Position numbers and translations under genes: made by a program. From Candidatus Nomurabacteria bacterium (GTDB lineage Bacteria > Patescibacteriota > Minisyncoccia > Phycocordibacterales > UBA918): 64,000 nt of DNA. The stretch covers positions 144,502 to 208,501 of the forward strand of contig JACKGF010000002.1 in NCBI GenBank assembly GCA_020632095.1, given 5' to 3'. The notes under the pieces were generated by a model. The model saw nothing but the letters and a program-made list of their open reading frames with translations. It was not told the DNA's origin and ran no database searches. How positions within the stretch are numbered: the stretch's first letter is position 1; each line of letters opens with the position of its first letter. Positions 7,011 through 17,066 of the stretch are shown here, piece by piece.

Positions 7011-7070
7011 CAAAATATAAAATATTAAAAACACAAACTTACATTTGTGTTTTTAATATTTTATATTTCA
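7011..7070. repeat. 26-bp perfect AT-rich inverted repeat (hairpin)
   Basis: AAAATATAAAATATTAAAAACACAAA / TTTGTGTTTTTAATATTTTATATTTC around a 6-nt loop. Confidence 0.8.
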
Positions 7071-8009: not shown

Positions 8010-8501
8010 TTGTATAATACAAAAATGATTGATCTATCAAACTATGATTCTCTACGAAAGGACTCCCACGCTTGGTTTCATGCTCTTAAACCAGTCGAAT
8101 CACCTGTTCTAAATAATTTGATTCATTTTACCTCTGAGGGATTTGAACATATCATATACAAAAGTGCTCGATCAGAAAGAGATAAATCATCCCAGATAAT
8201 GCGCCTAAAATTACTACCTTTAGCAATTAAACTAATAGAAACATCTACCACATTCCAAGAATACGAAGAAACTATAAAACAATTTATAGTGAAACAATGT
8301 AAGAAAAAAGTGCAAATCTCAAAAAGAGTGCAATACTGGGGCATTATCGCTATCATTGAAGGAAGAAAGATAAAAGTAATTATCCGAAAGATCGGGAATG
8401 GCAAACACCATTTCTGGAGTGTTGTCCCTAGCTGGACCACAAATAAATTTAGAGATACTAAATTTGTCTCCACCATGAAGGGCAGCCCAGAAGAAGACTA
8501 A
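8010..8501 (+). CDS. hypothetical protein
   Basis: 163-aa ORF; followed by hairpin CCACCAGGAGGTGGTATTTTTAG. Confidence 0.4.
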   Translation: MYNTKMIDLSNYDSLRKDSHAWFHALKPVESPVLNNLIHFTSEGFEHIIYKSARSERDKSSQIMRLKLLPLAIKLIETSTTFQEYEETIKQFIVKQCKKKVQISKRVQYWGIIAIIEGRKIKVIIRKIGNGKHHFWSVVPSWTTNKFRDTKFVSTMKGSPEED

Positions 8502-8652
8502 AAATACCACCAGGAGGTGGTATTTTTAGGAGTGCTCGCCTTCAGCTTATGTATTAGCCGAATAGGGCTGACGCCCCACAAGCACACTTTCACTATATTC
8601 TCCAATATATACTATGTCAAGACGCTATTATCCCCTATGAGTTAAAGGGGCA

Positions 8653-8760
8653 ACTCCGGAGGTTGGTCCTCCGTGAACCACGCCCCTATCTCGGGAGCTT
8701 ACGACGACAAAAATACCCAGCCTGAAGCTGGGTATTTTTGTCGTAGCTGGCCGTCTCGGG
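8653..8760. repeat. repeat module copy 1: 27-bp hairpin unit A (8653-8679) plus 77-bp hairpin unit B (8684-8760)
   Basis: near-identical copies at 10571-10597 (A') and 11067-11142 (B'); B contains a 16-bp-stem hairpin GACAAAAATACCCAGC/GCTGGGTATTTTTGTC. Confidence 0.8.
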
Positions 8761-8917
8761 CTAGAACCGTCTGATAACCTTACCCTGCTTGACTGAATAG
8801 CTATCTCAAAATTATCTAAATCGACGCGTCTCGTGCGCTATAAAAAGTGACAAAAGTTACACATATTTGCATATGTCACAATGTTACATACCATTGTCAC
8901 TTTTAGTTATTTACTGA

Positions 8918-10423
8918 CTACTGTGGCTCGTTTATATTTACAACACCCTCTGCTTCTTCTTGTACAGCATCTAAAACACCCCAAAGCGCATTGATTACTT
9001 CTTCACCTAAAAAATCAGCAAGTTGTCCAGAGGGCCTTTCTTTACCAATAACTTGAGCAGTACGAAGAGTCCAATGAATTCTTCTTGTATCTAAAATCTG
9101 CTCTAGCTCCTTTATCACAGGCTTAACATCATGAGTCTTTCTGTCCCAAGTCGCAGCTGTTCGTAATAATTCTGCTTTAGCCCCGAAAGTATCTGCTTGG
9201 CTAACAATCAATTGGACAGCATCTGTCCAATTAGTTCCCAAAGCTGTAAGTACATCATCAGTTATATATAGATTTTCTGACTCATGGCAAGATAGTTGAA
9301 TATACTTAATCTGATCTTGAGGATTCTCTGAGCTTGGGGTCGGCTTACCCTTATCAGCATCAATAAGAGCATACCCTGCTAACCCAAGTATAGGATCACG
9401 TAATGCAGAAAAAATTTGTTGAAGTGATTTTTGATATTGTTTAATTTCCTCACCTTGTGAAGGTATAACAGAAAAAGAAACTACATGGTGTCGAGGAATT
9501 TGACTCCAAATTCTATAATCATCATCACCTTCTACCAAAAGTATTGGAACTCCAAATAGTGGACCCATAAGTGCATGGCCACCTAAACAGGCGGAAAGTT
9601 CCTTTGTGACATTATCAAAAGGCTTTGCTTCAAATGTATCATTTGCTCTATTAAGGTAAACAACGCTGGATGACTCCCCAGCAAATTGACCTACCGAAGC
9701 CATTAACGTAGTACTGTGTGTAGCTATTATAATTTGAAGAGAATACTTTTCTGCGACTTGTATCAAAAAATCGGCGAACCTAACTTGTAAATCAGGATGG
9801 ATATGCGCATCTGGCTCATCGATAAGCATTATTCTCTCTGACTTCTGTTCTATTTCCCAAATAGCAGAAACTGTTAGTACATCGAGACCAATCGTCAATA
9901 GTTGAGCTTCACCACTACTTAGCTGTTCAATACCAGATACTCTAGTTTGATCTAAGGCTCTGGTTAGTAAATACGGAGGATTTTCTTTACTATTTAGTTC
10001 AATTTGGAAGTCTGGTATCAACTGACTGATTAAACCCTCTAAATCTGAGGGGTCACCCAAATCACCATATTCAACACCTTTTCTGATACCACCTCTTGTT
10101 GTGAAATATGCTGGTATTCTAGTAATAACATGTTGCCGATAATCAGCTGAATAATTTCCCTTACTGTACTCACTACGCTTAGTACTACTCAACTCTTCTT
10201 GAAGCCATGCTGGTTGCATATCCAAGGTTCCCGTTCTCTCTGGAATTACATAATGGATACTATCAACAGCCTGATCCCTAAGTGATCTCAGTAGTAGACT
10301 TTTACCAGAACCATTTTTACCAAATAGAATAGTTACAGAATTTAAATTAGTAACTGACCAATTACCACCACCAAGAGGACTTGGTCGAGGAATAGTAATT
10401 GAATTCCTATAGGGTAATCTCAT
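8918..10423 (-). CDS. OLD-family ATP-dependent endonuclease (ABC-type ATPase plus TOPRIM)
   Basis: Walker A GKNGSGKS, Walker B/D-loop LIDEPDAHIHP, C-terminal TOPRIM-like PILLVEGDDDYRIW. Confidence 0.75.
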   Translation of the reverse strand: MRLPYRNSITIPRPSPLGGGNWSVTNLNSVTILFGKNGSGKSLLLRSLRDQAVDSIHYVIPERTGTLDMQPAWLQEELSSTKRSEYSKGNYSADYRQHVITRIPAYFTTRGGIRKGVEYGDLGDPSDLEGLISQLIPDFQIELNSKENPPYLLTRALDQTRVSGIEQLSSGEAQLLTIGLDVLTVSAIWEIEQKSERIMLIDEPDAHIHPDLQVRFADFLIQVAEKYSLQIIIATHSTTLMASVGQFAGESSSVVYLNRANDTFEAKPFDNVTKELSACLGGHALMGPLFGVPILLVEGDDDYRIWSQIPRHHVVSFSVIPSQGEEIKQYQKSLQQIFSALRDPILGLAGYALIDADKGKPTPSSENPQDQIKYIQLSCHESENLYITDDVLTALGTNWTDAVQLIVSQADTFGAKAELLRTAATWDRKTHDVKPVIKELEQILDTRRIHWTLRTAQVIGKERPSGQLADFLGEEVINALWGVLDAVQEEAEGVVNINEPQ

Positions 10424-10570
10424 AAAGCTACTGTATCAGTTTATTTTTGTTTGACTAGTTTCTAGTAATTCACAATAGAATTAATTACTAAGAATAGCTC
10501 TAGTAATTTCAACCAGATGTTCAGGATTTGTTCGCAGGTCAACCTCTATTACCATTTGATTTTCATTTCA

Positions 10571-10597
10571 ACTACGGAGGTCGGTCCTCCGTAAACC
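10571..10597. repeat. repeat unit A' (copy of 8653-8679, 3 mismatches)
   Basis: ACTACGGAGGTCGGTCCTCCGTAAACC vs ACTCCGGAGGTTGGTCCTCCGTGAACC. Confidence 0.8.
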
Positions 10598-10933
10598 AGA
10601 TAATAATTTTAACATAACAAAGCCCGGTGTTTAACCGGACTTCATATAAATTTATTTTTCACACTTGTTTACGTTAATTAATACCAAGTAAATCAAGAGT
10701 TGTTGACTGGTTATCGCAATCTGTGAGCTGACAGCCGAAGTAAATCTTCAGGACCACCCATCTATTGTTACACCAAACCAATAAGCCAATTTCTATTTTC
10801 TGTTTATTGAATCACCTTAATGGTTAAATTCTTTTTAAATACTATATTGACTAATAGATTCGTGAAGCGCAGAACAAGTTACCTGCCTTCACTCTTAATA
10901 CACCTACACAAGAAAAATATTTCACTTCTGTAC

Positions 10934-10958
10934 GAGTTAACTGCCGGACAGGGACTCG
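10934..10958. repeat. attL-like direct repeat: displaced copy of tRNA-Gln 3' end
   Basis: CTGCCGGACAGGGACTCG (10941-10958) identical to 17019-17036; flanking GAGTT also shared. Confidence 0.7.
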
Positions 10959-11066
10959 GTCAGGAGTCACTAACTATAATTGTTCACTTCGTTCCAATTC
11001 TAGTAAGTGCTCACGACCCTGGCGGGTCAAACAGTCTCCCAGACTGTTTGCTTCCGCCTTTCTCAT

Positions 11067-11142
11067 CCCTATCTCGGGAGCTTAAAACGACAAAAATACC
11101 CAGCCTGAAGCTGGGTATTTTTGTCGTAGCTGGCTGTCTGGG
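11067..11142. repeat. repeat unit B' (copy of 8684-8760, about 95 % identity)
   Basis: CCCTATCTCGGGAGCTTAAAACGACAAAAATACCCAGCCTGAAGCTGGGTATTTTTGTCGTAGCTGG... Confidence 0.8.
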
Positions 11143-11194: not shown

Positions 11195-12496
11195 CTATTT
11201 TGCTTTCTTCTCTACCACAGCGTCAACTGCCTGCTTGACTATGACTTCATCAGGAATCATTTCATACAGCTTATCAACCATAACCATGAGATTATCGACT
11301 CCAATACTCACCACGTTTTCTTTTTTTTCTTTCTTGGAATTCTCCTCAACCTTTGCACCTACCTCCTGTTTAAAAGGCTCTGTGTAAATAGACTTAAAGG
11401 TATCTATTGAAAAATCAAGCACACGTTTATTGTCTTTAAATTTATCAAGCAAGAATTCAATATGGTTTCTAACCGCTGCAGCACTAGCTGCTTTAAAAGC
11501 ATACTTTTCCAAAAATTGTCTTTCTTTTGAGTATTGGACTGCTGAAAATAGTACTAGAAAAATAAGCGGCGATGTATAAGCAAAGCGTGTAAAAAAGCCT
11601 TCAATACCTGTAAGGTCTTTCAAACTCAATTCTATTAGTATCAACAAAATAATTCCGCCCAACATCAGATACTTCCATGAAAATAAGTCTGAATCTAAGC
11701 TTTTCGAAATTTCATTCTTTCTCTTTTCAAACGTATGAGCAAAACTACCGTCAATCACCAATCCTGACACTTCCTCAACTTGATTTTTCTTCTCATTAAC
11801 CTCATCCAAAGAAGTCTTGATGTCACTCAAAAAATCTGTAGAGCGTTGCTTAATGTCGACAATCTCTTTTTCATTCGTTTTGGAGACTTTCAGTGATTCA
11901 TTTATCTCTGCGACTAGTTTAACTGAATCTAACTGAGCCTGCTGGACAAGCTTAAGAACAGCATCTAAGCCCGAGTTCTTATCATCAATCTTCTTCTTAA
12001 TTTCAGTAAATTCAACAAAAGCTGTTTTCATTGCTTCAGCCTTTTGTTGGAAATCAACCAACAACTTGTCAGATTTACTCAAATTCTCCTCTGCACTCTT
12101 TTTATACTTCGCAATATCCTCATCTAAACTCCTTGAGCTTTTTAAAAGTGCCGTAATTTCGCCATCATTACCCCGTACCTGACCTTCTAGAGCGGCTGCA
12201 CTTTTACTCAATTCTTGAAGCTTGTCTATTGTTGTTTTGGCAGCATCTAAGTATCCACTTATACCAGTACGTGTCTCTTGTATCTGGTCAAGTGAAACCT
12301 TTGCTTGATTTTGCAGTGCCTGCACTCCAGTCTTGATTTCATCCGTTTCAGTTACAATACTTTCAGCAGCATCACTTGCCTTTTGATAACGAATCTCCAA
12401 CCCTTCGATGTTATCCAAGGTTTTCTTTGCTTTTGTATACCGCCCTTTGACTGTTTCAAGGAATTGTTTTATTTCGGCAATTTGCTGTTCATCCAT
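11195..12496 (-). CDS. coiled-coil protein with two central TM helices (cargo of element; possible effector)
   Basis: about 270 aa E/K/Q/L-rich heptad N-terminus, TM helices LMLGGIILLILIELSL and SPLIFLVLFSAV, about 110-aa C-terminal domain. Confidence 0.5.
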   Translation of the reverse strand: MDEQQIAEIKQFLETVKGRYTKAKKTLDNIEGLEIRYQKASDAAESIVTETDEIKTGVQALQNQAKVSLDQIQETRTGISGYLDAAKTTIDKLQELSKSAAALEGQVRGNDGEITALLKSSRSLDEDIAKYKKSAEENLSKSDKLLVDFQQKAEAMKTAFVEFTEIKKKIDDKNSGLDAVLKLVQQAQLDSVKLVAEINESLKVSKTNEKEIVDIKQRSTDFLSDIKTSLDEVNEKKNQVEEVSGLVIDGSFAHTFEKRKNEISKSLDSDLFSWKYLMLGGIILLILIELSLKDLTGIEGFFTRFAYTSPLIFLVLFSAVQYSKERQFLEKYAFKAASAAAVRNHIEFLLDKFKDNKRVLDFSIDTFKSIYTEPFKQEVGAKVEENSKKEKKENVVSIGVDNLMVMVDKLYEMIPDEVIVKQAVDAVVEKKAK

Positions 12497-14567: not shown

Positions 14568-15515
14568 ATGGATAATAATGATATAAAAAGCGCTCGATAT
14601 TGCTTTACGATTCACAATTACACAAAAGACGAACTGAAACAGTTCCACCAATTAGCTCAGTCCCTAGAAAAGCACCGATTTATTGCCTACGGATTAGAAG
14701 TCGCTCCAGACACTGGAACACCTCACATTCAAGGCTATGTTGAACTTAACAAATCACAGAGATTTACCTTTCTTCACAATTACTTCAACATCAAACGTGG
14801 GAAGAAACTATTAAAATTTCATGTGGAAATTGCAAACGGTACTGCTGAGCAAAATCGAAAATATTCAAGCAAAGAAGGTAACTATTTTGAGTTTGGTGAA
14901 CCAGCAACCCAAGGTAGTCGAACCGACTTGAAAGAAATTAAAAGATTACTAAAAGAAAATCCCAACAACCTCGTTGCTGTCATCGAAGAACATGGGAATA
15001 ACTATCAGCAGATACGATTCGCTGAGACACTGCAACCATATTTCATGGCAGACCGTGACCCTGATAATCCTCCAACGGTAATTTGGATTTTTGGTTCAAC
15101 TGGAATTGGAAAAACGTCAATGGTGTATAGAACTTTCGGAAAAGAAAACGTCTGTTCAGTCTCTGCATACAACTGGCTCGGCACTGGATATAGACAACAA
15201 GAATGTTTCCTTATGGACGACTTCCGAGCTGATGATTTAGCCTTCAACACTCTTCTAAAAATTACTGACCGCTTCCCTTTCACCCTAGAGCGTAAGGGTG
15301 GACAAGTTCCCTTAAATTCGCCTTACATCATCTTCACCTCACCAAGAGCAATTAGGTACACCTATCTGAGCATCGGTGAAAAGGTCGAACAGCTACTTCG
15401 TAGAGTAAAAGAAATTAACCTAGACTTAATAATTGATGACTCTGGAATAGACCTGAGAAATCTAGATGAGAAATACGTTTACAAATACGTCAATTATCCT
15501 AAGGATGACTTCTAG
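14568..15515 (+). CDS. rep: CRESS-DNA-virus-type replication initiator Rep (HUH endonuclease plus SF3 helicase)
   Basis: motif I CFTIHNY, motif II PHIQGY, motif III YSSKEG; Walker A GSTGIGKTS, Walker B LMDDF, motif C IIFTSP. Confidence 0.85.
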   Translation: MDNNDIKSARYCFTIHNYTKDELKQFHQLAQSLEKHRFIAYGLEVAPDTGTPHIQGYVELNKSQRFTFLHNYFNIKRGKKLLKFHVEIANGTAEQNRKYSSKEGNYFEFGEPATQGSRTDLKEIKRLLKENPNNLVAVIEEHGNNYQQIRFAETLQPYFMADRDPDNPPTVIWIFGSTGIGKTSMVYRTFGKENVCSVSAYNWLGTGYRQQECFLMDDFRADDLAFNTLLKITDRFPFTLERKGGQVPLNSPYIIFTSPRAIRYTYLSIGEKVEQLLRRVKEINLDLIIDDSGIDLRNLDEKYVYKYVNYPKDDF

Positions 15516-15551: not shown

Positions 15552-17066
15552 ATGAGTAAATATGTCCTCTATGCACGAAAGTCCTCTGAAAGCGAAGATA
15601 GGCAAGTAAAATCACTAGACGCACAAGAGTCTGAAATGCTCACCATTGCTAAGCGTGAAGGACTAGAGATTGTAGAAATCATTCGTGAATCACATTCAGC
15701 AAAAACAACGAAGCAACGACCCGAATTCAACCGAATGATTAAGGGTGTACAGTCTGGCAAATACACTGCCATTCTGACATGGGCACCTGACCGAATCTCT
15801 CGTAACGCTGGTGACCTTGGTGTAGTCATTGACCTAATGGACGCAGGAAAACTTCAATGTGTAAAAACCTACTCACAAACGTTCTTCAATGACCCATACA
15901 GCAAGTTCATGTTTATGATGCTCGGCTCCCAAGCCAAGCTAGAAAACGACCAAAAGAGCTTGAATGTAAAACGAGGTAACCGAGAAAAGCTAAAACGTGG
16001 CGACTGGATTAATTCAGCGCCTTTTGGCTATTTGAATGACAAAGCAACTAAGACTATTGTCCTAGACCCTGAACGAGCTCCATATGTATCTCAAATGTTT
16101 GAACTGTATTCATCTGGACTCTATAGCCTTAAACAAATAGCTTCCCTTTTGTTTGATAAAGGACTACGCACTAAAGGCGGTAAAAAACTAAGTGCTGGTC
16201 AAATTCATAAAATCATCAACCGCACCTTCTACTATGGGGTTATGGAATCTGACGGAAAATACTATCAAGGCAATCACGAACCTATAATCTCTCAGAAACT
16301 ATTCGAACAGTGCCAAGAAATATCTGGAAGCAAATCACGACCTCGCAAGAAAACGAAGGGCTTTACCCTATCTGGATTCATTACTTGCGATAAGTGTGAC
16401 TGTGCCGTTACTGCCGAATTAAAGAAAGGTAAATATATTTACTATCATTGCACTAATGGTAAGGGTATTTGTGACCAAAAATCTTTCAATACAAACGAAG
16501 ATACTCTCCATGACTTTATTACTCTAGACATGAAAAAGCTAAAGATTAGTCAAAGAATGGTAGATATCGTATACACAGCGAAACTAGAAGAATTAAAACA
16601 ATCTGGTGACTTTCATAACCATGCACTAGACACTGCTCGTAAAGCTCTAGAATCGCTCTCTATGCGTAAATCAAGGCTGATTGATACCTTCACTGCTGGC
16701 GACATAGAAGAGACACTATATCGTGAAAAACTACTAACACTCGATAATGAGAAGGTGAACCTAGAAAAACAAATCGTTGAAATTGAGAAAAATAACCCTG
16801 ACCCGTACACAACTATCGAACTCGTCTATAATCAGTTTAAACGAGGCTATACAATGTCGAAACGGTACAGAGATGCTTCACCAGAAGAAAAACGAGAAAT
16901 TCTCTCAGACGCACTATCGAACTCCAAGCTACTAGATAGAAATATCGTTGATTTACAATACAAAAGCCCGTACGATGTGTTCGCACGGACTCCTGTAAAT
17001 GCCTCTTTTTCAGAGTTGCTGCCGGACAGGGACTCGAACCCCGATAGACGGCACCAAAAACCGTAG
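15552..17066 (+). CDS. large serine recombinase/integrase
   Basis: N-terminal resolvase domain with catalytic Ser (YARKSSESEDRQ..SLDAQ), recombinase domain, Cys-rich zinc ribbon (CDKCDC..HCTNGKGIC), C-terminal coiled coil; last about 16 codons overlap the tRNA-Gln 3' end. Confidence 0.85.
   Translation: MSKYVLYARKSSESEDRQVKSLDAQESEMLTIAKREGLEIVEIIRESHSAKTTKQRPEFNRMIKGVQSGKYTAILTWAPDRISRNAGDLGVVIDLMDAGKLQCVKTYSQTFFNDPYSKFMFMMLGSQAKLENDQKSLNVKRGNREKLKRGDWINSAPFGYLNDKATKTIVLDPERAPYVSQMFELYSSGLYSLKQIASLLFDKGLRTKGGKKLSAGQIHKIINRTFYYGVMESDGKYYQGNHEPIISQKLFEQCQEISGSKSRPRKKTKGFTLSGFITCDKCDCAVTAELKKGKYIYYHCTNGKGICDQKSFNTNEDTLHDFITLDMKKLKISQRMVDIVYTAKLEELKQSGDFHNHALDTARKALESLSMRKSRLIDTFTAGDIEETLYREKLLTLDNEKVNLEKQIVEIEKNNPDPYTTIELVYNQFKRGYTMSKRYRDASPEEKREILSDALSNSKLLDRNIVDLQYKSPYDVFARTPVNASFSELLPDRDSNPDRRHQKP
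17013..17036. repeat. attR-like direct repeat (within intact tRNA-Gln 3' end)
   Basis: GAGTTG-CTGCCGGACAGGGACTCG; 18-mer identical to 10941-10958. Confidence 0.7.

Follow-up and report, generated by a model that had tools for sequence, protein, structure and literature searches.

A stand-alone ABC ATPase-TOPRIM protein of a Candidatus Nomurabacteria bacterium, a candidate abortive-infection nuclease with merged AriAB as its nearest known relatives

ABC-ATPase/TOPRIM nucleases, including Old, Gabija, retron Eco8 and PARIS, are a major anti-phage group, and a review of the OLD proteins has asked whether one such protein can defend alone and whether AriAB fusions work as class 1 OLD or as PARIS (PMC10568477). 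What, then, is encoded by the gene on the minus strand at 8918-10423 of a 64,000-nucleotide stretch of contig JACKGF010000002.1 from a Candidatus Nomurabacteria bacterium? The whole stretch is called the window below, and positions are counted from its first letter. A first-pass annotation, made from the letters of the window, had read the gene as a stand-alone ATPase/TOPRIM nuclease of the OLD family with the architecture of P2 Old and Gabija GajA. Our analysis confirmed that the 501-amino-acid open reading frame (ORF) is a real single gene, in which an ATP-driven sensor domain is fused to a TOPRIM nuclease. We consider it likely that the product is a stand-alone, single-chain abortive-infection nuclease of a distinct family within the OLD-like superfamily, the nearest known relatives of which are merged AriAB proteins.

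Domain architecture of the 501-residue protein

The domains and motifs of the protein are located in the window as follows.

8918-10423, minus strand: ABC ATPase-TOPRIM gene, complete, 501 amino acids, stop codon at 8918-8920 (ORF list, homologues, AlphaFold2 model)
9656-10423, minus strand: ABC ATPase domain of AAA_21/AAA_15 type, residues 1-256 (Pfam, AlphaFold2, hhalign)
10298-10321, minus strand: Walker A GKNGSGKS, residues 35-42, with G35, N37, G40, K41 and S42 invariant
9902-9922, minus strand: ABC signature LSSGEAQ, residues 168-174, with S169, G171, E172 and Q174 invariant
9791-9832, minus strand: Walker B and D-loop IMLIDEPDAHIHPD, residues 198-211, with D202, E203, P204, D205, H207 and H209 invariant
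9710-9724, minus strand: H-loop ATHST, residues 234-238, with H236 invariant
9554-9655, minus strand: linker, residues 257-290, holding the strongly conserved KELxACLGGHALMGPLFG, which leads into TOPRIM strand 1
9254-9553, minus strand: TOPRIM core, residues 291-390 (AlphaFold2 models, AriB/DUF4435 matches, hhalign against the AriAB TOPRIM)
9506-9541, minus strand: TOPRIM glutamate motif LLVEGDDDYRIW, residues 295-306; E298 ends strand 1, and E298, G299, D300 and D301 are invariant
9350-9367, minus strand: TOPRIM DxD motif LIDADK, where strand 3 ends; D355 and D357 are invariant
9266-9289, minus strand: CHESENLY motif past strand 4, with E381, E383 and N384 invariant
8921-9253, minus strand: C-terminal helical region, residues 391-501, family-specific, with helices running to about residue 490

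Chance is excluded as the origin of this ORF, because 692 homologues were found at E<=1e-5 among 5.8 billion proteins searched and the motif residues are invariant in the 47-sequence alignment of the family on which invariance was judged. The best 120 of the 692 homologues have 458-518 residues and are 53-87% identical to the protein over nearly the full length. The N-terminal half was matched by Pfam AAA_21 (2.2e-16, 61 bits against a cutoff of 27, residues 30-241) and AAA_15 (1.1e-14, 55 bits against a cutoff of 32.1), and weakly by SMC_N, RecF and Rad50. All the motifs pointed out by the first-pass annotation, namely GKNGSGKS, the D-loop and the TOPRIM glutamate and DxD, are present at verified coordinates. 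The ABC ATPase motif set and the TOPRIM Glu/DxD, as seen by Pfam, in the alignment and in the AlphaFold2 model, are the features of the broad OLD-like superfamily (classes 1-4); PMC11464382 and PMC10568477 cite Dot et al. 2023 for this scheme, in which PARIS forms 'class 4'.

With the family alignment, AlphaFold2 gave a confident full-length model (predicted local distance difference test [pLDDT] 89.8, predicted template modelling score [pTM] 0.82), and the C-terminal 240 residues adopted the identical fold when they were modelled separately (pLDDT 91). In the model, the C-terminal half has the TOPRIM fold, made of four parallel strands (294-298, 318-322, 350-354, and 372-376), the first three being separated by helices; E298 and D355/D357 lie at strand ends and ExEN just after strand 4. 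The CHESENLY motif aligns with AEVENLF of merged AriAB/DUF4435 and probably forms a second metal-binding site. In the ATPase half of the model, the sole insert from Walker A to the signature motif is a short helical one (about residues 65-135), whose helices (71-78, 80-86, 95-110, and 125-135) are all short. Within the C-terminal helical region, W399, G414, D445, W451, R454, G460, P464, G466 and W481 are invariant.

Merged AriAB and class 1 OLD as relatives

The TOPRIM type was assigned at the family level by scanning 26 family members with PADLOC and Pfam. The C-terminal half was matched by the PADLOC AriB model in 22 of the 26 (best 5.4e-7) and by the merged AriAB model in nine, and by no Old or GajA model in any of them. 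Pfam DUF4435 (PF14491) was detected in 17 members (best 5.4e-6), for which it was the best TOPRIM family, DUF3226 in 11, and OLD-like_TOPRIM (PF20469) weakly in 10 (best 2.3e-3); the families matching this half were solely TOPRIM-type. For the 501-residue protein itself, DUF3226 gave an E-value of 0.04, PF20469 gave no match at E<=1, the top 25 PADLOC matches included no Old model, and the PADLOC GajA matches were confined to the signature/Walker B region of the ATPase. Of the PADLOC models, the fused AriAB model PDLC02981 scored best with the full protein (2.2e-21, 74 bits); it aligned with residues 127-387 across the ATPase-TOPRIM junction, the match spanning only profile positions 268-522 of 694 (37%). 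The same model was also the best one for 45 of 52 second-tier relatives. Of the profile matches that the first-pass annotation had looked to, those to AAA_15 and AAA_21 were obtained in this protein and that to OLD-like_TOPRIM was not.

Structure searches were made with both models. Foldseek with the full-length model placed GajA 8u7i_A on top (E=3e-7) and also returned PtuA, Eco8 OLD and the Thermus scotoductus (Ts) OLD 6p74, all at a template modelling score (TM) of at most 0.36; this search was rejected as a test of OLD against PARIS, since the ATPase dominates it and the two were not separated. With the isolated C-terminal model, an AriB chain was the first PDB match and another AriB chain the third, no OLD or GajA TOPRIM was present among the top 50, and no match was significant. 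The same model found nothing in the viral structure library BFVD, and PHROGs held no match to the C-terminal domain. The PDB was also searched by sequence, with the protein itself and with profiles of its full length and of the C-terminal part; only ATPase halves were returned, and nothing for the C-terminal domain.

The family was then compared directly with a reference of each kind. The AriAB reference was WP_216681622 of Campylobacter novaezeelandiae pCNZW441b1 (524 amino acids), verified as merged AriAB by PDLC02982 (E=3e-126, profile positions 31-559 of 570) and DUF4435 (55.7 bits), and the OLD reference was P2 Old (PADLOC Old 712 bits, OLD-like_TOPRIM 64.6 bits). By BLASTP, the 501-residue protein was collinear with WP_216681622 over residues 25-495 at about 20% identity (E=1e-13), and the match to P2 Old was local, covering residues 193-357, from Walker B through LLVEG and DxD (E=1e-7). 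For each reference, 120 homologues were gathered, and hhalign was run on reference alignments of 56-58 sequences. An earlier form of this comparison, the family profile against the single reference sequences, was underpowered (E=0.059 and 0.076) and was replaced by the profile-versus-profile one, which gave the following values.

Full length: AriAB 99.6%, E=1.5e-23, 345 columns; OLD 97.3%, E=1.6e-11, 254 columns
ATPase half: AriAB 99.2%, E=8.4e-20, 202 columns; OLD 97.1%, E=5.9e-11, 120 columns
TOPRIM half: AriAB 93.8%, E=1.7e-7, 116 columns; OLD 32.4%, E=4.7e-4
TOPRIM half, close family alone: OLD 0.5%, E=0.11
Control, AriAB against OLD: 90.6%, E=1.3e-6, 63 columns

AriAB was ahead of OLD in every paired test. 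The C-terminal domain does align to TOPRIM, the point on which the first-pass reading had been made to depend. In the AriAB profile alignment, VEG, DxD and ExENL were all in register, and the alignment stopped near residue 410, leaving the bulk of residues 391-501 unaligned to AriAB or OLD; in the TOPRIM half of the OLD alignment, strand 1 alone was in register. Moreover, the acidic residues at +57/+59 and +83/+85 from E298 fall within the AriB active-site segments, which are 80-87 and 109-115, relative to E26 (PMC12409363).

Hidden Markov models (HMMs) were calibrated with held-out members, the AriAB HMM being built from 56 verified merged AriAB proteins. On the AriAB HMM, true members scored 584-900 bits, the family 15-44 bits (median 27.6) and OLD a median of 12. 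On the OLD HMM, the corresponding values were 695-906 for true members, 14-28 for the family (median 21.3) and a median of 12.7 for AriAB, and the 501-residue protein was aligned only at residues 192-243, from Walker B to the H-loop. The own-family HMM gave 758-871 bits for held-out members, 169-282 for the second tier, and medians of 30 for AriAB and 22.5 for OLD. Furthermore, the C-terminal profile retrieved 283 clusters at E<=1e-3 from 1.84 billion representative proteins, and among the 150 matches listed nearly all full-length proteins share a layout of about 450-520 residues. Because of these calibrated scores and this uniform layout, the family is, on profile evidence, a separate, closed and tight lineage of the OLD-like superfamily, an uncharacterised branch of about 283 representative clusters. 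By the same evidence, its nearer relative of the two is merged PARIS, not class 1 OLD; AriAB and OLD each lie closer to it than to each other, and it is a true member of neither.

How far does the likeness to the named systems extend? Merged AriAB has the same domain order in a single polypeptide of comparable length (501 versus 524 residues), is collinear with the protein from Walker A to the motif past TOPRIM strand 4 with VEG, DxD and ExENL in common, and likewise stands alone on mobile DNA; it differs in the low identity, in that the 501-residue protein is below the DUF4435 cutoff, and in that most of residues 391-501 cannot be aligned. The two-gene PARIS (AriA and AriB; PDB 8ux9, 8v45-8v49) is made of the same ingredients, an AAA_15/21-group ABC ATPase and a DUF4435-type TOPRIM effector, and its AriB agrees in catalytic-residue spacing and in being the top structural match, a weak one, of the isolated C-terminal domain. 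However, AriA and AriB are separate proteins, whereas the ATPase and TOPRIM are fused here, and the gap from Walker A to the signature is about 126 residues compared with about 300 in AriA (signature region near residue 361). The coiled-coil insertions by which AriA builds its hexameric scaffold are not present in the AlphaFold2 model; no long coiled coil is seen because the ATPase is much shorter than AriA.

Class 1 OLD (P2 Old; Ts OLD, PDB 6p74) is homologous locally, in the stretch that runs from Walker B to the TOPRIM Glu and DxD, and is similar in size (528 residues in Ts OLD versus 501), but its TOPRIM is of the PF20469 type, which the 501-residue protein does not match, and the TOPRIM halves are unaligned past strand 1. 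It hydrolyses ATP and acts on DNA as a 5'-3' exonuclease with nicking activity (PMC10568477). Gabija GajA, a class 2 OLD, has the same ABC ATPase and TOPRIM architecture and was the top full-length Foldseek match, but is partnered by the GajB helicase, and no such partner lies beside the present gene or at 42 related loci. The P2 Old/GajA assignment of the first-pass annotation therefore stands for architecture, an ABC ATPase-TOPRIM fusion, and fails for family by homology and by the calibrated HMMs. Its Class 1-like label could be used on the context-based definition of a single gene, and the protein is OLD-like in the broad sense, but the label is not borne out by PF20469 or by the OLD HMM; its exclusion of Class 2 or Gabija agrees with the lack of a GajB-type helicase in the window and in the related loci.

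Spread, neighbourhoods and proposed function

The family is patchily distributed and was found in 46 of 185,579 species representatives, a lower bound since the scan relied on exact peptide patterns. Its hosts are Proteobacteria, Acidobacteriota, Planctomycetota, Gemmatimonadota, Chloroflexota, Verrucomicrobiota, Patescibacteria and two archaeal metagenome-assembled genomes (MAGs), with 42-62% identity. The archaeal members, from a Halobacteriales MAG (L045) and a Nitrosopumilales MAG (L054), are 45-51% identical, and binning contamination is possible for them; if genuine, they imply transfer between domains. A full-length second-tier relative in Escherichia coli, WP_085458947, is 25% identical (E=7e-35). 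Of the 5,426 complete genomes of this species, 28 carry it; its place there is between yfgI and guaA, genes that are neighbours in E. coli K-12. An insertion sequence fragment adjoins it, and a response regulator is near. Its coordinates in two of the loci are given below.

L073, 7884-9398: E. coli relative
L076, 9130-10599: E. coli relative

The naming sources label the family only as AAA family or predicted ATPase, the E. coli relative ('AAA family ATPase') included. Since these are the only names and the Pfam TOPRIM models miss their cutoffs on the 501-residue protein, censuses of defence systems probably undercount the family. In a separate observation, residues 784-1011 of a larger protein of other architecture (P0270, 1153 amino acids) hold the family's TOPRIM/helical domain, and one unspecified member of the P0270 alignment matched the Peptidase_C48 and RickCE models.

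The neighbourhoods of the gene were compared at the 42 related loci, and no recurring partner gene was found, no neighbour family being present in more than six of them. The commonest neighbours were a large serine recombinase (six loci), an N6_N4 methyltransferase (four) and uvrA (four); others were HigB/HTH and DUF4258 toxin-antitoxin (TA) genes, a NACHT protein, Cap15, Hypoth_Ymh and an MmeI-like restriction-modification gene. In the alphaproteobacterial loci, the gene adjoins uvrA along with TA genes (HigB/HTH, DUF4258), as is typical of an insertion hotspot. A small ORF of 82 residues 3' of the gene in four loci (L004-L007) was considered as a partner and rejected, being absent from the window and from the other loci. 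Within the window, too, the gene is followed by no same-strand ORF of at least 50 residues and the next gene is convergent, so that the earlier statement that no partner helicase follows was upheld. The large serine recombinase of the window is 39-60% identical to recombinases lying 4-7 kb from the closest homologues of the gene, and the layout there is constant, with the recombinase and the ATPase-TOPRIM gene at opposite ends and both reading outward. With low to moderate confidence, the gene can be regarded as cargo that moves horizontally on integrative elements, in many cases ones with a large serine recombinase.

We infer a defence role, and with it a trigger, a substrate and a series of activation steps, as follows. 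The N-terminal ABC ATPase would dimerise or oligomerise head to tail around ATP and serve as sensor and switch, keeping the covalently attached TOPRIM inactive in the resting state. A phage-derived trigger would shift the ATPase conformation and free the TOPRIM, whose two-metal site (E298; D355/D357; E381/E383) would then cut nucleic acid, and with this cleavage the infected cell would stop growing. Analogy with AriB and the affinity of the TOPRIM would point to host tRNA as the substrate; the alternative is DNA, as for Old and GajA. PARIS is triggered by phage anti-restriction proteins and cleaves tRNA-Lys/Thr/Asn (PMC11464382, PMC12409363), and AriB is activated by release and then dimerisation (PMC12409363, PMC11464382). 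Since the effector is covalently attached here, activation would occur in cis or within the oligomer rather than by release as in the two-gene PARIS. Both the ATPase and the TOPRIM activities are probably required, because the catalytic residues are all intact and invariant; by mutagenesis, P2 Old needs both activities (PMC10568477) and AriB needs E26 (PMC12409363).

Three other explanations were weighed against a distinct family of defence nucleases. If the protein were a class 1 OLD nuclease, a relative of P2 Old and Thermus OLD, it would be an ATP-modulated 5'-3' exo/endonuclease acting on DNA. The single gene coding an ATPase and then a TOPRIM agrees with the context-based definition of that class (PMC10568477); also in its favour are the length near that of Ts OLD, the presence of GajA, Eco8 OLD and Ts OLD among the full-length Foldseek top matches, the P2 Old alignment at E=1e-7, the weak OLD-like_TOPRIM matches in 10 of 26 members and the full-length hhalign value of 97.3%. 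However, those Foldseek matches are ATPase-driven, PF20469 is unmatched in this protein and the PADLOC Old and GajA models in the C-terminal half, the close family reaches only 0.5% against the OLD TOPRIM, no OLD or GajA TOPRIM is in the top 50 of the PDB, and the OLD HMM aligns a segment of the ATPase at 14-28 bits versus 695-906; AriAB is ahead in each pair. We regard this explanation as quite unlikely. If the protein were a true merged PARIS (AriAB), it would be expected to respond to Ocr-type anti-restriction triggers, to cleave specific tRNAs at the anticodon stem and to be labelled PARIS_merge by the tools now in use. PDLC02981 is indeed the best model for the full protein and for most second-tier relatives, and the original fusion detection used thresholds of 80 bits for AAA_15 plus DUF4435 but only 20 bits for AAA_21 plus DUF4435 (PMC9122126), so a permissive rule could call PARIS at the 34.5 bits obtained on our AriAB HMM. 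Nevertheless, the PDLC02981 coverage is 37%, DUF4435 stays at 14 versus 27 bits, the family is at 15-44 bits versus 584-900 for members, most of the C-terminal helical region cannot be aligned to AriAB, and nearly all full-length proteins among the 150 C-terminal-profile matches listed keep the layout of about 450-520 residues, with no obvious stand-alone AriB of about 300. Such membership is therefore unlikely.

A non-defence role, as a housekeeping or element-maintenance ATPase-nuclease with, for example, a Rad50/RecF-like repair or an addiction function of integrative elements, would suit the weak SMC_N, RecF and Rad50 matches of the ATPase, the frequent adjacency to serine recombinases and, in alphaproteobacteria, to uvrA, and the identity of about 55% across phyla, a degree of conservation that fast-evolving defence genes seldom show. 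It is very improbable in our judgement, since the family is uncommon and scattered (46 of 185,579 species; in E. coli, the relative is carried by 28 of 5,426 genomes), has no consistent partner or operon, has only anti-phage systems as its nearest named relatives, and at the uvrA sites is accompanied by TA genes, as insertion hotspots are.

Several points weigh against the single-chain abortive-infection nuclease with merged AriAB as nearest relatives. The TOPRIM matches of the 501-residue protein itself are weak (DUF4435 reaches 14 of the 27 bits that its cutoff asks, E of about 0.04; PADLOC AriB 3e-4), and the top Foldseek match of the isolated C-terminal model, AriB 8ux9_A, is not significant (E=0.028, TM about 0.2). 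The AriAB-HMM bits of the family (15-44) barely exceed its OLD-HMM bits (14-28), so that the PARIS affinity is relative and not membership, and the AriAB reference set represents one of the two merged PARIS clades described (PMC11464382), the other merged clade and the two-gene PARIS being left out. The release and dimerisation of a separate AriB cannot literally take place in a covalent fusion. There is no experiment on any family member, and none was found on merged AriAB. At the locus, the gene lies outside the clearly bounded tRNA-Gln element that it adjoins, and its guanine-plus-cytosine (GC) content of 0.385 equals that of the genome (0.39, as in the window). No empty-site variant was recovered, and exact look-ups of the flanking proteins gave only contigs ending at a 76-nt repeat beside the gene. 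In at least five independent assemblies a contig ends at this repeat; such breaks in assemblies of the same organism account for the short contigs, and presence/absence polymorphism is thereby neither proved nor excluded.

Taken further, the proposal of a single-chain defence nuclease may also be read as one of an independent and ancient lineage of ABC-ATPase/TOPRIM immunity standing between class 1 OLD and PARIS, with its own C-terminal region for substrate or trigger recognition and with activation in cis, spread across phyla, the candidate phyla radiation (CPR) and archaea on serine-recombinase elements. We hold this wider version to be possible though doubtful. If it is true, the family could show how the two-gene PARIS relates to OLD and whether tRNA or DNA targeting came first. 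In any case, the family, which is compact (about 490 residues), very conserved and partner-free, would make a convenient minimal model for the questions of the OLD review, and the E. coli relative WP_085458947 would be a convenient experimental candidate. The practical value lies in better annotation and a candidate for testing; no new principle is involved.

The locus in the window

The features around the gene are as follows.

8010-8501, plus strand: next gene, a convergent ORF of 163 amino acids here and 158 in public assemblies
8684-8759: 76-nt repeat, copy a, 159-234 nt downstream of the gene's stop; 8704-8744 forms a perfect 18-bp hairpin
11067-11142: 76-nt repeat, copy b, 95% identical to copy a, 3' of the coiled-coil gene and inside the tRNA-Gln element
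10941-10958: exact 18-nt copy of the tRNA-Gln 3' end (identical to 17019-17036), the distal att-type boundary, 518 nt upstream of the start codon
10941-17089: integrative element of about 6.1 kb, bounded by the 18-nt direct repeat of the tRNA-Gln 3' end
15552-17066: large serine recombinase in the element, its 3' end overlapping the tRNA-Gln gene
14568-15515: CRESS-like HUH Rep with superfamily 3 (S3) helicase in the element (Pfam Viral_Rep and RNA_helicase)
11195-12496: coiled-coil protein in the element, with a hydrophobic stretch, probably membrane-spanning

The first-pass annotation had placed the gene between repeat modules in an island next to tRNA-Gln. The repeat modules were recovered as the two copies of the 76-nt repeat; as to the island, the gene does adjoin the tRNA-Gln integrative element, but it lies 518 nt outside the boundary. 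Each repeat copy sits downstream of a minus-strand gene, and the repeat is probably a terminator or a repetitive extragenic palindromic (REP)-like element; fragments of it at three further places of L001 make it look like a dispersed element of this kind in the lineage. L001 (GCA_022843685.1) carries a homologue of the gene that is 80% identical. The 118 nt 3' of the gene at 8745-8862 are 89% identical to L001 9542-9659, and this likeness of the flanks stops precisely where the hairpin ends on its 3' side (8744), which points to the hairpin as a module boundary. In the promoter and terminator scan, the counts were not above those of shuffled sequence, and under its tail rule the 8704-8744 hairpin was not called a terminator. 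Rfam gave no credible family on the flanks of the gene.

No further tRNA-Gln fragment bounding an older island around the gene was found with up to three mismatches; a degenerate att site near 8560-8680 is weakly suggested by an alignment. With low to moderate confidence, the gene may be taken here as a 2.4-kb remnant (the unit 8684-11142) of an earlier tandem insertion at tRNA-Gln. The 3' flank at 8502-8917 contains no ORF of at least 50 residues on the strand of the gene. The convergent ORF at 8010-8501 has no significant domain, with a sub-threshold LPD3 match (E=0.007); in other assemblies it is found together with the dsbB-side flank, and elsewhere it is unlinked to the ATPase-TOPRIM family.

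Besides the proteins listed, the tRNA-Gln element encodes a helix-turn-helix (HTH) regulator and a DUF2726 protein. A Rep of the eukaryotic-virus type within a bacterial serine-recombinase element is unusual, and a 5.9-kb contig from another sample (L070) covers exactly this element. A second repeat of 30 nt, 90% identical between 8651-8680 and 10569-10598, forms a small hairpin (CGGAGG...CCTCCG); it touches the 76-nt repeat in copy a and is 468 nt away from it in copy b, with the tRNA-Gln fragment within the gap. Farther away, an AT-rich inverted repeat, perfect over 25 nt and interrupted by a 6-nt gap, is present at 7013-7068, between a gene of 400 amino acids and dsbB.

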